64,000 bases of DNA, taken from the sequence record OX638288; one strand, given 5' to 3'. Shown in pieces: positions 4,925 through 22,070 of this stretch. Both the position numbers and the translations under genes were made by a program. The notes beneath the pieces are model-generated. The model made no database searches. It saw only the letters and a list, made by a program, of their open reading frames with translations, and was not told where the DNA came from. Each line of letters begins with the position of its first letter. The stretch's first letter is position 1. The DNA comes from Escherichia phage UP19.

Positions 4925-5035
4925 ATGAAAAACTTACTTAAAGCAATTTGGAACATGTTTGTATTATTGGTCGTATTGAGCATTTTCCCAATCGTTTTTA
5001 TTATTGACCATGTACGTGTATTCTTTAATTTCTGA
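4925..5035 (+). CDS. small hydrophobic peptide (36 aa, predicted single transmembrane helix)
   Basis: MKNLLKAIWNMFVLLVVLSIFPIVFIIDHVRVFFNF; GGAG 7 nt upstream; below ORF-track length cutoff. Confidence 0.45.
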   Translation: MKNLLKAIWNMFVLLVVLSIFPIVFIIDHVRVFFNF

Positions 5036-5045
5036 GGAAAATATT

Positions 5046-5270
5046 ATGAAACTTTTTAAAGATATCGCAGTTGGTGAAAAATTTGTCTTAGGTAATGGAC
5101 AACAATTGATTCGCATTTCTCCTTTAATGGATAATAGTGAGCGTCCCATTCGTACTGAAAACTGTTTGGATTATCCTTTTTATCAAAAGCGTTTTGCTAT
5201 TGAAAATAATACCGAGTGTTTCACGGTTGATGAACTGATGGAATTATCAGAAGAAGTCGACTCTGAATAA
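5046..5270 (+). CDS. hypothetical protein
   Basis: ATG with GAGGAAA ribosome-binding site; in frame with ORF 5004..5270. Confidence 0.5.
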   Translation: MKLFKDIAVGEKFVLGNGQQLIRISPLMDNSERPIRTENCLDYPFYQKRFAIENNTECFTVDELMELSEEVDSE

Positions 5271-11153: not shown

Positions 11154-11429
11154 ATGACTAAAATTGAAATCGTTTCCGAAATTGCTACTATTGCTTCCAT
11201 TTTGATTAAAACGGATTGTGAAGACATCATGCAACGCCGTGATGAGTTTATTGCCTTTTTGAATGAGTTGGGTATTCGTAATGAACATGGAAAGGAACTT
11301 AACGGCCTATCTTTTAATAAACTCTTTAAGTCTTTAACTGAAGATGAACGTGATACTCTTATTGAGCAATTTAATGAAGGGTATGAAGATATACACCGTT
11401 ATCTAATGATGTATACCTCCAATTTTTAA
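11154..11429 (+). CDS. asiA: AsiA anti-sigma-70 factor
   Basis: 91 aa; ...IASILIK...FIAFLNE...LIEQFNEGYEDIHRYLMMYT matches recalled T4 AsiA. Confidence 0.9.
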   Translation: MTKIEIVSEIATIASILIKTDCEDIMQRRDEFIAFLNELGIRNEHGKELNGLSFNKLFKSLTEDERDTLIEQFNEGYEDIHRYLMMYTSNF

Positions 11430-12079
11430 CGAGTTCGACCTAATGTCCTCCCGGCCTGACCACACATAGACGAAAGTCTAGGAAATCCTAAATCCGGTTT
11501 GATGTCATACCAGTATAATGATATCGAGCCGGCATAGATGTTATCCAAATTAAAAAACGGGCATGAAAACATATACGTGAATTGGGTTTTCTTCTTTGTA
11601 GGAAGGAACACACTTTCTGTACTTGATTCAAAATAGTTCCCGTTAACTCCAGCCATATATTCTACCGACGTTTTGTCAATCGGAAATCCTCCCGTATTTT
11701 TTGCGTCTACCGTTTCCGGTAATTTACCCTCATAAGCTACCATATCCACAAAATAATTCATGTTGGTCGGCCTAAAAGAATATATTGCTGTGAAGTCTGC
11801 GCCTGAAGAAGAATGCACTATTCGGAGCTGCTCGATAGCCGCAATTTTAAATCTATTGTCCTGGTCTTGTCTAATCATTTCAGTATAAGAGGCATAAGTT
11901 GTCTCTTTATAAAAGTTTAGAATATGCTCGCCTTTATACCAAACTAATGCCATAAAGAACAATAATATTACGACTAGGACCCGGGAAAAAACTACTTTCC
12001 CGGAAGAAGTATCTTTAAAAATTCTATCAAGAAGTCCAAAAAGTAGGTCCGATAATGAAAATCCTACTTTTGGTTCCAT
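11426..12079 (-). CDS. t: holin T
   Basis: 217 aa (T4 holin 218 aa); N-terminal TM region plus large periplasmic domain; ...NLDNIYAG...YWY... Confidence 0.9.
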   Translation of the reverse strand: MEPKVGFSLSDLLFGLLDRIFKDTSSGKVVFSRVLVVILLFFMALVWYKGEHILNFYKETTYASYTEMIRQDQDNRFKIAAIEQLRIVHSSSGADFTAIYSFRPTNMNYFVDMVAYEGKLPETVDAKNTGGFPIDKTSVEYMAGVNGNYFESSTESVFLPTKKKTQFTYMFSCPFFNLDNIYAGSISLYWYDIKPDLGFPRLSSMCGQAGRTLGRTR

Positions 12080-12097: not shown

Positions 12098-12105
12098 TAT
12101 TTATA
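12098..12105 (-). promoter_or_regulatory. T4-type late promoter (TATAAATA) for t
   Basis: reverse complement of TATTTATA reads TATAAATA about 20 nt upstream of the AAGGAGA ribosome-binding site and ATG. Confidence 0.6.
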
Positions 12106-12121
12106 ATTTAATACTTTCGTA

Positions 12122-12898
12122 TTATAACCAAGAGCCATAGATAGTGCCTGTCGCGCCCCATGAAGGACTATTACCACTTACAGCAGGCCCTGCAGCTCCA
12201 GGTGGAGACATGGATACACGGCGTCCATAACCCCAGCCGCCTGCAGCGCCTGCGTCACCACCCCAACCGCCACCAAACTGTCCGCCGGCATCCCCGGGAC
12301 CACCAGCCCCAGCATAACTAGCGTTACCGCCAGGTCTATAACTAGTTGCACCACCTAACCCGAATGGTCTGCCACCGCCACCGCCGCAGGTTGAGCCAGA
12401 AGGATAGCTATTTTGCAATGATGTAGCACCGCCACCACCGCCACCACCACAGATAACACCATAGTTCCATATGCGTAAACGCCCACCAATTTCATTATAA
12501 ATTGCTGTACCGCCTTGTTGGCCTCCACCGCCATTGGTTGCGCCATTACCACCGCGTCCCCACATATGAACCCCGCCATGAATATTCAAAGTAACATATT
12601 CGTTAGGGATGTCACTATTCATAAAGAACAATGGAAGGTCTCTAGTATAAGATACTAAATCGCCGGTGATATTAAACACAATAGGTGCAGCGCCGGCTTC
12701 AAAACAACGGTCTCTAAACCAATACCCATTGAAGTTGTGGTCTGCTCCAAGTGTGTGAATTATTTCAACAGACCGACCTACCATATTACTCATCCAAAAC
12801 GGAGCACCCATTCTCAATCGTTGGGCAGCGCCGCCCATCCAATTTTGTCCCGTATTAGCTAATGCAGAAGTTCCTATCCACGGTCCTGCTACTGCCAT
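12122..12898 (-). CDS. 38: gp38 long tail fibre adhesin, T2-type with glycine-rich motifs
   Basis: poly-Gly segments ([22 protein letters not shown]); N-terminus MAVAGPWIG like T2 gp38; start moved to ATG with GGAGG ribosome-binding site (ORF track 12122..12910 starts at TTG). Confidence 0.85.
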
Positions 12899-12930
12899 AT
12901 AAACCTCCAAGGGGCCGGAAGCCCCTCTTA

Positions 12931-15900
12931 TTATTTTAACAATGATTTAACTAAAGCTTTAAGTTCTTCAATCTCTGATTTCAATTCTGCTATTTCGGCA
13001 GTGTGCTCATTGATTGCAGCTGTATTTAAACCAATTACACCGTTATAGTTCAAACGAAGTAAAGCTTCACCATCAGGGTCACCTTCAACCAATTCAGGTA
13101 AAATAGCTTGAACTTCTTGAGCAATTAAACCGGCGTTAGGTTCCCATTTCTGATTACCTTCTTCATCTAGGCCTCGCTTCTGCATATAAGTGTAACCGTT
13201 AATTTTGGAAAGCTTCTCAGAAGCATTTTCAAATTTAACAAGGTCTTTTTTAACGCGAATATCAGAACGGACATAAACATCACGGACAAACGTTGAATAG
13301 TTATCATTTGCCTGAACGAGATGCCCATGAGAAACGATAGCTCTTCCAACTTCCGACCAAAAAGCCCCGGATGAATCCCAAAGCCCAGGATGAGATTGAT
13401 AGCCTGACCCCCAGCTTGCAATATGCACACCATTGGCAACCATGTTAATTCGGCCATCACCGCCATGGGTTAAACCAGTATCATTATCACCGATGGCGAT
13501 AGATGCTCCACCCCATATAGGAATTGTACCTACGCCTAGGTTTACGCTGGCACGTAAACCAGCAGGTGCAACAAAATCACCATTAGACTGAAATACAAAT
13601 ATTGCATTAGGATGGCTTGCATCGCCGCTTTCAGCAGAACCCACACGAATAACAGCAGAACCCCAGGTAGCCGCTCCACCCAATCTAATAATACCGAAGT
13701 CTGCTTTAGTAGAATATCCGTCAGTAACTAGAGTGCTTTTTCCTTTGATAATTGGCATATAACTATCTTTAGGAACGGATTCACCAAAGTCAACGAAATA
13801 AGGAGCTTCTGTTTGCCATTGATTTCCGTAACCATGACCTTGAGTATTAACCCATGCTCGACCGTTAACATACATGCGATAATAATTCATCTGCATTGCT
13901 AAGCCAGTACCGGAAAGTTCTACGTTGAAAGCCCCATCATTAGTGATGTACATACCCGAGTTGGTAGCATAACTGTAAAGAGCTATCCCGTTATCATCGC
14001 CACCTTTACCGACATACCAGTTGCTGGTACCATTTACATCGGAACGGATATGCGAGCTATTACCTGTGGTTGTTTTTAATACTAATGCATCACCAGGAGC
14101 TTCGATAGTCAGCTTACCTGTCATTGTGTCCCCGCCTTTACCAACACGAGTACTCACCGCTGCATCAAGGTTAGTAGCACCACTATACTTGTTCCAAATA
14201 GAACCTGCAATATTACCATCAGTATTCATGAAAGCTGTACCGGCATATAAGCGGTTCAGAGCTATGAAGTTACCATCTTTGGTAAAGCGCCAATATTTTA
14301 ATCCTGTAACATCGCCATCACCATGCAAATCACCTTGAGCAACAATTCGGTATTCGCTCGTAGCGCGGTCCATACCTTGAGTAACAGTTACATTCGAATC
14401 GATATTTTTCTGCTTAGTAATAGGATAAAATGCTTGGGTTGCAGCATCGAGTGCTTGATACAACGGAGCTTTAGTCGTATTCTGGTTGGCATAAGATGCG
14501 CCGTTACTATTAGGGAATTCCAATGCACCATTACCCCTAAAATAAACCTGGTCTGCTTCTAAGTTAGGGATTTTAACCCGGCCCGTGTCTAACATAATAC
14601 TTAATGGGCGTAATGGGCCTAATCCGCCACTTTCGCCGGCATTAACATTGGTTGGGATAATATGCAGCTGGTCTTCTGAATTTCGGAAAATAACACCATA
14701 TTTATCATTCCAAATACGAAGACCACTAGCAGCGCGGACTTTAATTTCATTGGAAACATACAGATTGCGTTTTAAGGATGTATCTTGACTGACAGACAAT
14801 CCTTCGACGATGTTCATCGTGCCGTTTAAATAAGATTCGACTTTACCTGCTGTGGTTCGTTGAATATAGTGCATCCAGCCTGTAGCATCAGATGTTTCCA
14901 ATACGTTTTTACGAGAACCACCTACCGTATTAAAAGTGTCACCCCAACCTTTGAGCTCTATATTATCAACTGAACTATATCCTGAGGTACTTCCTTTAAA
15001 AAGCACAGTGGAAGCGTTACCACGACCGTCAATATTAACCGAACCACCACGGACTTCAACGTTACCAGGAGTAACCAACAACCCACCATCAGTGTTAACG
15101 TTTGTTACACCTTTACCACGGAAATAATGGTGGTATTTACCACTCTGATGATAACCTAAAAGAGTCTGTCCATCACCAAAGCCGTTTTTATCATTAGTAG
15201 TATTAACAATAACTAATGGATAGTTTTGGGTTGTAGGGAGAATTAAATCAGAACCGTTGGTTGAATAACCCGCAACTAACTGTTTAAGGCTTGTAACTTC
15301 AGTAGGAGTTGTAAGTAAAGTATAAGCCCCATTATTAACTGTATGGAACTGGCCGTCTTGTCTCCATTTCAAACCTGTGTTATTGTCGCCAAGTGCGATA
15401 GCAGACGGGCCTAATGTTGAGTATCCTGAGCTATCCCCAGGTAGGCCAACGGAAAGAGAATTTGATGTTTTGACATCTCCATCTGCGTTAAATGACCAAA
15501 GATACTTAGCTGTTCCGGCTGTAGAAATAGAATGCCATGAAATACCATTTACATTATTAAGTTCACGATACCTAATTCCATCGACAGCGTGTCTACTTAT
15601 TCTAAGATAGTTAATAGATGTTGCGCTTGAACTTGCAGGATTATTATTTGCCAATGAAGATATATCATAATCAAGAGCTGATTTATTACCAGTATCAACT
15701 GTATTAGTATAAATTACTGGAGATTTCACCGATGTTCCGCTGGAAATAGACGGAGCATAAAATAAACCGTCGCCGTTGAATGCAAAAATATTAGATGTTG
15801 AATTAGTATAATCCTGGACACGAACGTTCAAGATTTGCTTGGTATTTCCTGGGCGTGATTGTGAATAAATTATGCCTCTTTCACGCGCATCAGCCAAATC

Positions 15901-16272
15901 CTGGAATCGAACGTGGGCGGTTCCTGCACCCCGTACAAGAACTTCACCATTATCTGTCATTAGGCGAGATTTTGCTGTGATATCACCATTTGCTGTTATA
16001 TTTCCGGATGCTACATAACTACCTGTTTGGGTAAAGGTACCCTTTAGGGCGTAATCGCCGGTTTGATTGTAATTACCGTTATGAATAACATTACCATCGA
16101 TATTACCACCTTTGGCAAAACCAAGGTCGATGATGGCGCCGGTGTCATCTTTAGTAAAAAGTAAGCGGTCTTTCAGGTTGATAGCCAGCTCACCTTCAGC
16201 AAGAACTGTTGGCGCCGGACGAACGCCGGCAACCTTACTTCTTTTAAATTGTATTTGTTTTAAAGTAGCCAT
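12931..16272 (-). CDS. 37: gp37 long tail fibre distal subunit with C-terminal intramolecular chaperone-like domain
   Basis: 1113 aa; position between gp36 and gp38; C-terminal ~110 aa resemble endosialidase/S74-type chaperone domain (...[15 protein letters not shown]...). Confidence 0.85.
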
Positions 16273-16280
16273 AATGCCTC

Positions 16281-16928
16281 TTAATAATAACCAAAATCTT
16301 GGATAGAATCTTTAATAACAATCTGGTCGAAACGCGGAACATGTCCTGCGTCAGAGGCCGGATTTAATGAAATGAAGTTAGGAGCAGCAAGTACCCCAGT
16401 CATTGTTTGCATATTAGTATTATTTATTTGGACCTGTTTTGCGTTATCTACTAATGACAATCCAACTTGGGCTTTAGTAGGGGTGTTGCCTGGGCTGAAT
16501 ACTCGGCCTGATTCATCATATACTTGACGGAATAATGAATCGCCCATTACGGTAAGACGTTTAGCACCAACTGTTGTATTTGGGTCAAATATCACAAACG
16601 GAGTACCATCTTCCGTTTCATATCCAAAAGCACCTTTAATACGGAAAGAAGCTGTGAACGGGGCTCCGCCGGTTCTTGCTCCTAATTTAATACCGTATCC
16701 ATTAGTATCATTAAAGGTCAAACCTTTTTCAAAATACACGTTGTTCTGATAATTACCACCGTTGGCTTTTGAAACGAAATCGTTATCAACTGCTTGAGGT
16801 TTATTGTACTCGGTGTAAACTTTATATGTTTTGTAAAGAAGGTCATTTGATACAGGCGTTAAGGGGAAATTACCTTGGTGCCATAATACCGAACCTCCTG
16901 CTGTAGAACCTAATTTTAAATCTGCCAT
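16281..16928 (-). CDS. 36: gp36 long tail fibre hinge connector
   Basis: 215 aa (T4 gp36 221 aa); synteny. Confidence 0.8.
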   Translation of the reverse strand: MADLKLGSTAGGSVLWHQGNFPLTPVSNDLLYKTYKVYTEYNKPQAVDNDFVSKANGGNYQNNVYFEKGLTFNDTNGYGIKLGARTGGAPFTASFRIKGAFGYETEDGTPFVIFDPNTTVGAKRLTVMGDSLFRQVYDESGRVFSPGNTPTKAQVGLSLVDNAKQVQINNTNMQTMTGVLAAPNFISLNPASDAGHVPRFDQIVIKDSIQDFGYY

Positions 16929-16980: not shown

Positions 16981-17004
16981 CGAAAAAGGAACCCGAAGGT
17001 TCCT
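16981..17004 (-). terminator. hairpin plus U-run on minus strand after gene 35
   Basis: minus strand reads GGAACC-TTCG-GGTTCC followed by TTTTT. Confidence 0.5.
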
Positions 17005-18122
17005 TAATATTTTTCTCTAAATTCAGACACCCAAACCTGTCCCGGTTTAGTACCTGTTTTATCGTATAACTGGGCTATGGTAGTACCCATATTCTTAGTT
17101 TCGGTACCGAAATTCATACGAATACCATTTACACCAAATTCGGCCGATTTAGGTTGAGATTCCGGCTCTGATACTTCCCCAAACATCACATTACGTACAC
17201 CGCCAACTCCATCGGCCACCGTTTTTCTTGCATACAATGTAAATGTTTCCGTATTAGCAGGAACTTCAATTACCCGCTCAAAAGTCATCCAAGACCCGGC
17301 AGGGACATTAGGTGGAACTTCCATATTAACCGACCCTGTTAAAGCACCTGAGGCATTAAAAAATCTAACAGACATTTGAGAAGTCCCTAAATCTTTTAAT
17401 TCCTGGTCACACATCATTTGGAATTTAAGGTAAAAGAATTCTCCTGGCTTCATATTATAATCAGCGCAAGGAGTAGTAGGAGATTCGGTTGGGAAACGTT
17501 TTATTTCCTCTCCATCATTACTTAGATAAGTGTTTTCATCTTCCACTATTCTTATAGGATACCCGGTCCCGCCTACATCACTGATATCGTCAAAAACGAC
17601 TTCTAATGGTGTAGAAACATCTTCAACAACCACCCCATCATTATAAAGGACATGTTCCATCACTATGGTATTTCTACCAGACACGTAAAAAGCTGAATAA
17701 GAAGTATCCACTTTATCAATGAGCCATTTATCCGGAAAGGCCGCAGACCCTGCAGCTCTAAACCAATCAATTAACACTTGCGAGGCGTTTAATTTGCCAG
17801 AAGAAATAAAGCAAACAATTCTCCCAGCGGGTATAGAAGAAATATAAGTTATAAATGCTTGAGAAATAACATCATGGTCTTTGGTAAAGGCATATGATTT
17901 TGTAGCCACTATTGTGTTATTTGTTGGGTCTATTTCAACCAAATTTAGCCCGGATTTGAAATCCTGAGGACCGAAGTCCTCATCTTGAAATTTAATATAA
18001 GCCTTTTTAGTAGACTTAGTACAGCTCCCTGCTATACTAAGTTTATAACTAACGGCATTATTTTCAGATAGTACAGGAATTTGAACGTAATCTTGTCCAA
18101 ATTCAGCCATAAATCTTTCCAT
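17004..18122 (-). CDS. 35: gp35 long tail fibre hinge
   Basis: 372 aa (T4 gp35 372 aa); synteny. Confidence 0.8.
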   Translation of the reverse strand: MERFMAEFGQDYVQIPVLSENNAVSYKLSIAGSCTKSTKKAYIKFQDEDFGPQDFKSGLNLVEIDPTNNTIVATKSYAFTKDHDVISQAFITYISSIPAGRIVCFISSGKLNASQVLIDWFRAAGSAAFPDKWLIDKVDTSYSAFYVSGRNTIVMEHVLYNDGVVVEDVSTPLEVVFDDISDVGGTGYPIRIVEDENTYLSNDGEEIKRFPTESPTTPCADYNMKPGEFFYLKFQMMCDQELKDLGTSQMSVRFFNASGALTGSVNMEVPPNVPAGSWMTFERVIEVPANTETFTLYARKTVADGVGGVRNVMFGEVSEPESQPKSAEFGVNGIRMNFGTETKNMGTTIAQLYDKTGTKPGQVWVSEFREKY

Positions 18123-22062: not shown

Positions 22063-22070
22063 TATTTATA
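22063..22070 (-). promoter_or_regulatory. late promoter TATAAATA for gene 34
   Basis: reverse complement TATAAATA about 33 nt upstream of gp34 ATG. Confidence 0.6.

Follow-up and report, generated by a model that had tools for sequence, protein, structure and literature searches.

A probable T2/T6/RB69/S16-type distal long tail fiber module in a Dhakavirus-like coliphage, with an S74-type chaperone domain in gp37 and an adhesin-type gp38

Phage T4 has a receptor-binding extension on gp37 itself, and its gp38, a separate and unrelated protein, serves as an assembly chaperone and does not form part of the virion (Trojet et al., PMC3157838). In phages T2 and T6, the C-terminus of gp37 is cleaved and gp38 then forms a cap, and this adhesin type is the predominant one (Trojet et al., 2011, PMC3157838). 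The T2 cap is about 260 aa long and contains glycine-rich motifs (GRMs) and hypervariable segments (HVSs) (Drexler et al., 1986; PMC3157838); the T2-type architecture comprises five GRMs and four HVSs (PMC3157838), an arrangement of glycine motifs and variable segments that has been tied to receptor specificity (PMC3157838, PMC12032242). The gp37 of phage S16 is cleaved at DLNVS^SDRRIKK, after which N-terminal tryptophans of gp38 dock on the surface bared by the cleavage, and the corresponding site in the fPS phages is DVYIR^SDGRLKI (PMC7917993). Receptors mapped for gp38 adhesins include Tsx, OmpA, OmpF, and OmpC. FadL is also among them, and the variable loops of S16 gp38 bind Salmonella OmpC. 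The S16 gp37-gp38 structure (PDB 6F45) is reportedly that of Dunne and colleagues from 2018. In the T5 fiber protein pb1, cleavage occurs between Thr1263 and Ser1264 by a Ser-Lys mechanism with Lys1269 (PMC4690869). A literature search for Ser911/Lys916 of the endosialidase found nothing, and the Ser-Lys mechanism is therefore cited here from the T5 paper.

The locus described here lies in a 64,000-nucleotide stretch of Escherichia phage UP19 (sequence record OX638288), which is called the window below. The window belongs to a Dhakavirus-like T-even phage and is about 95% identical to phages JS10 and MN04. We regard the locus, with a probability of about 0.9, as the standard distal long tail fiber module of the T2/T6/RB69/S16 type in such a coliphage, based on profile membership, conservation of catalytic residues, predicted fold, gp38 homology, gene order, and purifying selection. 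All features lie on the minus strand. Gene 36 (16281..16928; PHROG 1425, E 5e-58) encodes the small distal fiber subunit or hinge connector, gene 37 (12931..16272) the precursor of the distal long tail fiber subunit (1113 aa, 119.3 kDa), and gene 38 (12122..12898) the putative tail fiber tip adhesin (258 aa, 26.0 kDa, 25% Gly), which has gene 37 on one side and the holin gene t (11426..12079; Pfam Phage_holin_T, 225.6 bits) on the other. The resulting order 36-37-38-t is common to T2, vB_EcoM_HZ_ZJUN4 (ZJUN4), JS10, RB69, and JS98. Gene t is the usual downstream neighbor of gene 38 in T-even phages, and gene 36 adjoins gene 37 upstream.

Between the stop codon of gene 37 and the ribosome-binding site of gene 38 we found a GC-rich hairpin (12910..12926; GGGGC-UUCCG-GCCCC), followed on its 3' side by GGAGG, a 7-base spacer, and the ATG of gene 38. 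At this place, the hairpin of ZJUN4 and T2 has a C(UUCG)G tetraloop on another stem sequence. The true start of gene 38 is the ATG at 12898, as homologs begin with MAV.GPW; the TTG at 12910, given as the start in the list of open reading frames, falls within the hairpin. T4 late-promoter motifs were located upstream of just two genes, 34 and t; the sequences immediately preceding genes 37 and 38 have none.

The gp37 protein matches PHROG 1699 (long tail fiber distal subunit) over aa 1-1112 (E=0), and its matches to Pfam gp37_trimer and Gp34_trimer both lie upstream of the C-terminal domain discussed below. It shares its locus and its role in the distal half-fiber with T4 gp37, to which the N-terminal and trimerization regions are homologous (Pfam gp37_trimer) and for which gp38 and gp57A are the chaperones. 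The shaft is a mosaic, with identity falling to 26-60% across Dhakavirus, Mosigvirus, and Tequatrovirus. Overall, gp37 is 60% identical to its counterpart in ZJUN4 and 79% to that in Esco_phi_B-01, and a stretch at around aa 700-950 diverges. We considered the single HGH motif shortly ahead of the cleavage site (aa 982-984) as a metal site resembling the His-x-His of T4 gp37, but rejected it since the motif is not conserved (YGH in RB69, JS10, and B-01; NGN in S16).

An earlier interpretation made from the DNA letters (the sequence-only reading) had assigned positions 12931-13260 to a self-cleaving chaperone-like domain resembling those of endosialidases and T5 L-shaped fibers, and had proposed a profile search for the S74 domain. 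The C-terminal residues that it quoted match the end of the open reading frame 12931..16272 exactly. The interval covers codons 1005-1113 plus the stop codon, but the first codon of the domain, that of Ser1003 (13264-13266), lies two codons upstream of its start. In the profile search, aa 1003-1062 aligned with positions 1-57 of the 58-position Pfam profile Peptidase_S74 (PF13884); the score is 48.6 bits (E 1e-12), the gathering cut-off being 22, and the resemblance is well above what chance would produce. The domain thus delimited, aa 1003-1113 (12934..13266, with the stop codon at 12931-12933), is 111 aa long (12.3 kDa) and occupies the extreme C-terminus of the 1113-aa protein; it is C-terminal in most relatives too, and we found no second S74 domain elsewhere in the window. 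Resemblance to the T5-like fibers is borne out by pb1 of phage fuchur, which is 44% identical over aa 1002-1112 (E 2e-23). Searched as a whole against the PDB at E<=0.01, gp37 matches a single chain, the S16 gp37 construct 6F45_A; these sequence matches reach E 7e-35 for the last 120 aa and E 4e-45 for aa 920-1113. An initial homolog search with a 145-aa query returned 13 short proteins, too few for diversity, and was replaced by a search of cluster representatives, 16,596 of which match the chaperone domain at E<=1e-3.

The domain was modeled alone as a monomer with AlphaFold from a 36-sequence alignment (model residue 1 corresponds to aa 998), replacing an earlier run on aa 973-1113 with a 10-sequence alignment, which was discarded at a pLDDT of 56.9. 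The retained model (pLDDT 94.7) shows the mixed alpha/beta fold with a hairpin and terminal helix expected of S74 chaperones. Its long beta-hairpin spans aa 1026-1049 (13126..13197), with strands at aa 1026-1035 and 1041-1049 (model E29-38 and E44-52), and is, by analogy, probably the counterpart of the T5 pb1 ‘tentacle’ that grips the fiber tip (PMC4690869). The long C-terminal alpha-helix, aa 1076-1112 (12937..13047; model helix H79-115), has a heptad pattern in which one register places seven hydrophobic residues at a/d positions, and is predicted from the model to form a trimeric coiled coil that nucleates trimerization. The best Foldseek matches in the PDB are the ICA domain of MyRF (7dc3; E 3e-6, TM 0.77) and the endosialidase intramolecular chaperone 3GW6. 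The latter is matched with a probability of 0.98-0.99, but with weak E-values (0.035-0.09) and a large rmsd, and this fold match bears out the proposed endosialidase likeness. Taken together, profile, catalytic motif, and predicted fold support the identification of the gp37 C-terminus as an S74-type intramolecular chaperone.

The predicted scissile junction is Arg1002/Ser1003 (13264..13269), in which Ser1003, the first residue of the motif SDIRVK (aa 1003-1008), is the predicted nucleophile; Lys1008 (13249..13251), five residues further, would act as the general base that completes the Ser-Lys pair. This spacing equals that of Ser1264/Lys1269 in T5. Among 164 related domains, Ser1003 is conserved in 162 and both Asp1004 and Lys1008 in all; Lys1008 is likewise invariant in two alignments. 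The junction DVYVR/SDIRVKK aligns with the S16 cleavage site (VR/SDIRVKK versus VS/SDRRIKK). The residue preceding the scissile Ser differs, being Arg here, Ser in S16, and Thr in T5, and the exact bond is therefore assigned by alignment only. Cleavage at R1002/S1003 is predicted, by analogy with these systems, to release 111 aa (12.3 kDa) after trimer folding. The mature gp37 would then comprise aa 1-1002 (13267..16272; 107.0 kDa; putative boundary), and its terminal strand (...FVRDVYVR) would make the docking surface for gp38.

The sequence-only reading also took gp38 for a glycine-rich tip adhesin rather than a T4-type assembly chaperone, which the database matches confirm. Pfam PF05268 (GP38 adhesin) is matched over its full profile by aa 45-258 (248.6 bits) and PF21721 (Gp38_N), again over its full profile, by aa 1-40 (72.3 bits), while no Pfam family besides the adhesin ones is found at E<=0.01. 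Two solved gp38 chains are matched, namely 9v85 (E 4e-68) and 6F45_D (E 5e-49), the latter over the full length 1-258. These matches support placing gp38 among the adhesins and apart from the assembly chaperones of the T4 kind. The N-terminal attachment domain, aa 1-40 (12779..12898), corresponds to the Gp38_N match and contains Trp7, Trp20, and Trp35. These three positions do not vary in an alignment of 10 gp38 proteins, those of S16 and T2 among them, and by analogy with S16 the tryptophans are predicted to insert into the gp37 tip after its cleavage. The specificity domain, aa 114-258 (12125..12559; approximate boundaries), contains glycine-rich motifs, GRGGNG (114-119), GGGGQQGG (123-130), a run of seven Gly (151-157), and two further motifs of 12 residues (172-183) and 15 residues (209-223), with variable segments between them at roughly aa 131-150, 158-171, 184-208, and 224-233. 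In the alignment the Gly columns are invariant and the intervening segments vary, as had been read from the sequence; their role in receptor specificity would follow from the literature on other gp38 adhesins.

Among 50,697 phage records, the specificity domain (aa 105-258) has one close relative, that of Esco_phi_B-01 (98.7%), all others being at most 72% identical. This rarity is the sole mildly unusual item of the module. The nearest characterized relative in this domain is phage FL31 (68% identity), which depended only weakly on OmpF and TolC; we did not adopt a receptor assignment via FL31, as the identity is too distant and the dependence too weak. The rare gp38 domain and the new mosaic of the distal gp37 shaft might mean that the phage recognizes a receptor in the outer membrane, or receptor loops, differing from those mapped, but apart from the rarity of the sequence nothing points to this, and we consider it unlikely.

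The closest described modules are those of RB69 (Mosigvirus), JS10 (Dhakavirus), and ZJUN4 (Tequatrovirus). Their chaperones have the same length (111 aa) and are 98%, 99%, and 100% identical to the one described here, respectively. They also share the junction YST(F/Y)VRDVYVR/SDIRVKK, the gp38 N-terminal subtype (MAV.GPW...), and the order 36-37-38-t, whereas their gp37 shafts are a different mosaic and their gp38 specificity domains are only 62-75% identical overall. The S16 pair (PDB 6F45) likewise has an S74 chaperone after the fiber tip, cleaved just before SD.R.KK, and a gp38 that has a polyglycine core and docks by three tryptophans, but with only 57% (chaperone) and 48% (gp38) identity to those here. 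T2 is more distant: in addition to its processed gp37, with the junction NVYIR/SDIRLK (compare DVYVR/SDIRVKK here), and its glycine-rich cap, it has a chaperone of 99 aa that is 35% identical, a gp37 of 1341 aa that is about 30% identical overall, and a gp38 of another N-terminal subtype (MAIVGVPGW...) that is 51% identical. Placing the fiber tip in the T2/S16 class, as previously proposed, therefore holds for the adhesin architecture, but in sequence the chaperone and the gp38 attachment domain are of the RB69/JS10/S16-like subtype and not that of T2, as the chaperone identities indicate. T5 pb1 (PMC4690869) and the K1F/NF endosialidase (3GW6) belong to the same Pfam family and share the Ser nucleophile with a Lys five residues on, the beta-hairpin, the C-terminal coiled coil, and the terminal position on a trimeric fiber or spike. 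They differ in having unrelated upstream domains and no reported gp38-type cap; there, the exposed tip or the enzyme itself binds the receptor.

Three other explanations of the locus were weighed. The S74-like domain might fold the fiber and yet stay uncleaved on the mature fiber, forming part of the tip or leaving gp38 to bind at another site. This would agree with the fact that cleavage is deduced here by comparison and that the residue before the scissile Ser is unlike that of S16 and T5. However, the Ser/Asp/Lys motif is intact and essentially invariant, the junction strand DVYVR/SD is shared with the fPS phages and T2 (VYIR/SDIRLK), where processing has been reported or predicted, and gp38 retains the N-terminal domain and the three conserved tryptophans that in S16 dock on a cleavage-exposed surface, making an uncleaved fiber very improbable. 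The domain could also be an inert relic of recombination with other fiber genes that plays no role, given that tail fiber genes, including this gp37, are highly mosaic. The chaperone is nevertheless the most conserved part of gp37, with 98-100% amino acid identity across Dhakavirus, Mosigvirus, and Tequatrovirus, in contrast to the shaft values given above. Its codons differ from those of ZJUN4 by 15 synonymous and 0 non-synonymous changes and from those of RB69 by 15 and 2, which points to strong purifying selection and leaves the chance of an inert relic close to negligible.

A last explanation concerns gp38, which might be a T4-type assembly catalyst absent from the virion, with gp37 itself binding the receptor. 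The records of JS10, RB69, IME281, and JS98 do describe gp38 as ‘distal long tail fiber assembly catalyst,’ but this name was carried over from T4, as the RB69 record's own note states. Moreover, along its full length gp38 matches both adhesin families as well as two solved adhesin structures, with no non-adhesin Pfam family at E<=0.01. The receptor-binding tip of T4 gp37 is a solved structure, and no PDB chain other than 6F45_A is matched by gp37 at E<=0.01, so the T4 tip domain appears to be absent here. Neither a gp37 receptor-binding extension nor a chaperone-family gp38, the marks of a T4-type distal fiber, was thus found in Pfam or the PDB at this threshold, and we consider this explanation extremely unlikely.

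Under the preferred assignment to a T2/T6/RB69/S16-type module, gp37 would be synthesized as a precursor of 1113 aa, with the C-terminal 111 serving as its S74-type intramolecular chaperone. Three gp37 chains would associate through their C-terminal helices into a coiled coil, and the alpha/beta part and the long beta-hairpin would then template the folding of the trimeric, beta-structured fiber tip. After correct folding of the tip, Ser1003, with Lys1008 as its activator, would sever each chain between Arg1002 and Ser1003, and the chaperone would come off as a trimer, baring a flat tip of ...FVRDVYVR strands. One copy of gp38 could then dock on this tip via its N-terminal domain (Trp7, Trp20, Trp35), so that its glycine-rich core presents variable loops that would bind an E. 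coli outer-membrane protein and thereby set receptor specificity. We infer the cleavage, release, gp38 docking, and receptor-binding role from the work on S16, T2, and T5.

The arrangement is already known and ordinary for T2/T6/RB69-type phages, and the understanding of T-even tail fibers is unchanged by these results. Their main value is correct annotation, as many records of close relatives give gp38 the T4 function of ‘distal long tail fiber assembly catalyst,’ and in some public records the chaperone part of gp37 is separated from the rest or bears the label of an E. coli protein. Three points bear on the prediction of host range and the engineering of phages: residues 1003-1113 of gp37 are probably no virion protein, the variable segments of gp38 are the place to look for receptor specificity, and swaps of the gp37 tip must retain the matching gp38 N-terminal subtype.

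The gene 37 open reading frame (12931..16272, minus strand; 3342 bases, 1113 aa) encodes the distal long tail fiber subunit, matched over its entire length in PHROGs (E=0). The interval 12931-13260 is its 3′ end, and the last gp37 residues quoted in the sequence-only reading match the end of this frame exactly. Gene 36 (16281-16928) adjoins it, with genes 35 and 34 further upstream; gene 38, a glycine-rich ORF of 258 aa (12122-12898 read from ATG), and holin gene t (11426-12079) follow downstream, all on the minus strand. Elsewhere, the window carries rIIA, rIIB, denB, ndd, motA, and asiA. Given these T-even genes and ~95% identity with JS10 and MN04, both Dhakavirus phages, across 24 kb, the source is a T-even coliphage of the JS10 group.

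Four independent lines (profile, alignment to a solved chain, catalytic motif, and predicted fold) identify the C-terminal domain of gp37 as an S74 intramolecular chaperone. The profile search proposed by the sequence-only reading placed Pfam Peptidase_S74 (‘Chaperone of endosialidase’) on aa 1003-1062 with a score of 48.6 bits (curated cut-off 22). The gp37 construct of Salmonella phage S16 aligns with the final 120 residues (6F45_A, E 7e-35), as does, weakly, the self-cleaving domain of MyRF (7DC3). The domain opens with S1003-D-I-R-V-K1008; it occurs in 16,596 cluster representatives, as counted by an exhaustive search, and an alignment of 165 instances retains the Ser in 162/164, the Asp in 164/164, and the Lys in 164/164. 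In T5 pb1, the Thr1263-Ser1264 bond is cut and Lys1269 activates Ser1264 (PMC4690869), the same spacing as Ser1003/Lys1008 in gp37. An AlphaFold model of aa 998-1113 (input alignment of 36 sequences; pLDDT 94.7) predicts a long beta-hairpin at aa 1026-1049 and, at aa 1076-1112, a terminal helix with a clean heptad register. Among PDB folds, it best matches the MyRF ICA domain (E 3e-6, TM 0.77) and 3GW6, the ‘Intramolecular Chaperone’ of an endosialidase (probability 0.98-0.99), in line with the proposed endosialidase resemblance. The likeness to T5 L-shaped fibers also holds at the sequence level, since a T5-like L-shaped fiber protein from phage fuchur shares 44% identity with aa 1002-1112.

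S16 gp37 is autocleaved within DLNVS^SDRRIKK, releasing the last 113 residues, and DVYIR^SDGRLKI is the predicted site in the fPS phages (PMC7917993). The corresponding junctions are DVYVR|SDIRVKK in UP19 and NVYIR|SDIRLK in T2. By alignment, the predicted scissile bond is Arg1002-Ser1003, where cleavage would convert the 119.3 kDa precursor into a mature subunit of 107.0 kDa and a released piece of 12.3 kDa. The domain thus does lie at the C-terminal end as first placed (12931-13260), but spans 12934-13266, as 13260 corresponds to codon 1005, two codons inside the domain. The sole His-x-His of gp37 (HGH, aa 982-984, window 13321-13329) is found 19 residues ahead of the predicted site; the Tequatrovirus vB_EcoM_HZ_ZJUN4 (hereafter ZJUN4) has the same motif, which reads YGH in RB69, JS10, and Esco_phi_B-01 and NGN in S16. 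It could conceivably form a metal site on the three-fold axis but is not conserved.

As had been proposed, the partner protein gp38 is of the tip-adhesin type and not a T4-type assembly chaperone. Pfam recognizes PF05268, the adhesin body, over its full profile with 248.6 bits, and PF21721, the attachment domain, with 72.3 bits; S16 gp38 (6F45_D) aligns end to end (E 5e-49) and the gp38 portion of 9v85 with E 4e-68. Among ten gp38 sequences, Trp7, Trp20, and Trp35 are invariant, as are the glycine-rich motifs GRGGNG, GG..GG, G7, GGGGGRPxG.GG, and a fifth block, with variable stretches between them. UP19 gp38 thus has the described layout of five glycine-rich motifs and four hypervariable segments (Trojet et al., PMC3157838; Lutz et al., PMC12032242). 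No T4-type arrangement appears to be present: gp38 matches adhesin families only (Pfam), and gp37 matches no PDB chain at E<=0.01 except 6F45_A. According to Trojet et al. (PMC3157838), the C-terminus of gp37 is cleaved off in T2 and T6 and gp38 then caps the fiber, and it is this adhesin, in preference to the T4 arrangement, that predominates across the T4 superfamily.

Assignment of the fiber tip to the T2/S16 class is correct for the gp37-gp38 architecture, but the sequences belong to the RB69 and JS10 lineage: chaperone identity is 100% to ZJUN4, 99% to JS10, 98% to RB69, 65% to JS98, 57% to S16, and 35% to T2. The gp37 tip and the N-terminal subtype of gp38 vary together. UP19, Esco_phi_B-01, JS10, RB69, ZJUN4, and S16 all have the ‘MAV.GPW’ subtype, and the coliphages among them pair it with the tip ‘...YST(F/Y)VRDVYVR’, while the S16 tip differs; the ‘GIPGW/GVPGW’ subtype (T2, JS98, Ec2-ASingh) is paired with other tips and other chaperone variants. 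Trojet et al. (PMC3157838) had pointed out a lock-and-key pairing, with which this pattern is consistent.

Alignments portray gp37 as a mosaic. Compared with the Dhakavirus Esco_phi_B-01, otherwise the closest phage, aa 1-700 are mostly 80-100% identical and aa 701-950 only 42-58%; aa 800-950 are nearer ZJUN4 (78-88%), and the chaperone is 98-100% identical to both. The mosaic block thus occupies the distal shaft (aa ~700-950, window 13420-14170); over 13522-14116 there is no nucleotide alignment to Esco_phi_B-01, bar a 90-base stretch (13738-13827, 79%). The 111 chaperone codons show 15 synonymous and no non-synonymous differences from ZJUN4, and 15 and two, respectively, from RB69. Within gp37, purifying selection is therefore strongest on the chaperone, although this domain is predicted to be lost from the virion; the pattern fits an essential role in folding and speaks against a relic. 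Nearly all 13 differences between gp38 and its closest relative, that of Esco_phi_B-01 (95%), fall in the attachment domain, at residues 1-35 (window 12794-12898, compared with 5001-5105 of the Esco_phi_B-01 locus L002). The specificity domain is 98.7% identical, and this distribution suggests a recombination joint inside the 5′ end of gene 38 or the 3′ end of gene 37.

Past the stop codon of gene 37, a GC-rich hairpin (GGGGC-UUCCG-GCCCC, 12910-12926, minus strand) directly precedes the gene 38 Shine-Dalgarno (GGAGG, 7-base spacer, ATG). The equivalent spot holds C(UUCG)G tetraloops in ZJUN4 (GGGGC-UUCG-GCCCC) and, with a different stem, T2 (AGAGGGC-UUCG-GCCCUCU), and a CUAG loop in Esco_phi_B-01; the structure persists despite sequence changes, the UP19 loop having one extra C. 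As no T-run follows on the coding strand, this hairpin probably acts in mRNA stability or translation and not as a terminator. Between genes 35 and 36, an 8-bp perfect hairpin (AAGGAACC-UUCG-GGUUCCUU, 16986-17005, coding minus strand) is followed by a T-rich tail and scores as terminator-like on both strands. T4 late-promoter motifs (TATAAATA, minus strand) lie just upstream of holin gene t (12098-12105) and of gene 34 (22063-22070), within a window total of nine against 6.7 expected, which is not above chance. Genes 35-38 have no such motif directly before them, so one late transcript may cover genes 34-38.

The observation on gp37-gp38 is thus confirmed and its interpretation supported, for a system that is long established. 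GenBank already contains the chaperone sequence itself, with 100% identity in amino acids. The S16 structure reportedly dates from 2018. T2 gp37 processing goes back to Drexler et al. (1986, as cited in PMC3157838), gp38 modularity to Trojet et al. (2011; PMC3157838), and gp38-receptor mapping to Lutz et al. (2025; PMC12032242).

The gp38 genes of many relatives are mislabelled as T4-type assembly catalysts: GenBank names the adhesin-type gp38 of JS10, RB69, JS98, IME281, vB_EcoM_005, and others ‘distal long tail fiber assembly catalyst’, the T4 function, and a note in the RB69 record itself concedes the difference. Gene 37 of vB_EcoM_005 is annotated as fragments. Contigs of 60-167 kb carry five proteins of 121-183 aa (P0002-P0004, P0006, P0009) labelled ‘tail fiber domain-containing protein [Escherichia coli]’. 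They begin MVANG... and correspond to the gp37 C-terminus, comprising the chaperone and ~60 further residues. The contigs are apparently T-even phage genomes submitted under the name E. coli, their gene 37 having been split or truncated during annotation. In the phage collection, the gp38 specificity domain (aa 105-258) has one close relative, that of Esco_phi_B-01, all others reaching <=72%. The nearest experimentally characterized relative found is FL31 (68% identical in this domain), whose dependence on OmpF and TolC amounts to about one log only (PMC12032242). The residual value of the finding lies in the annotation correction and in this rare gp38 specificity domain.
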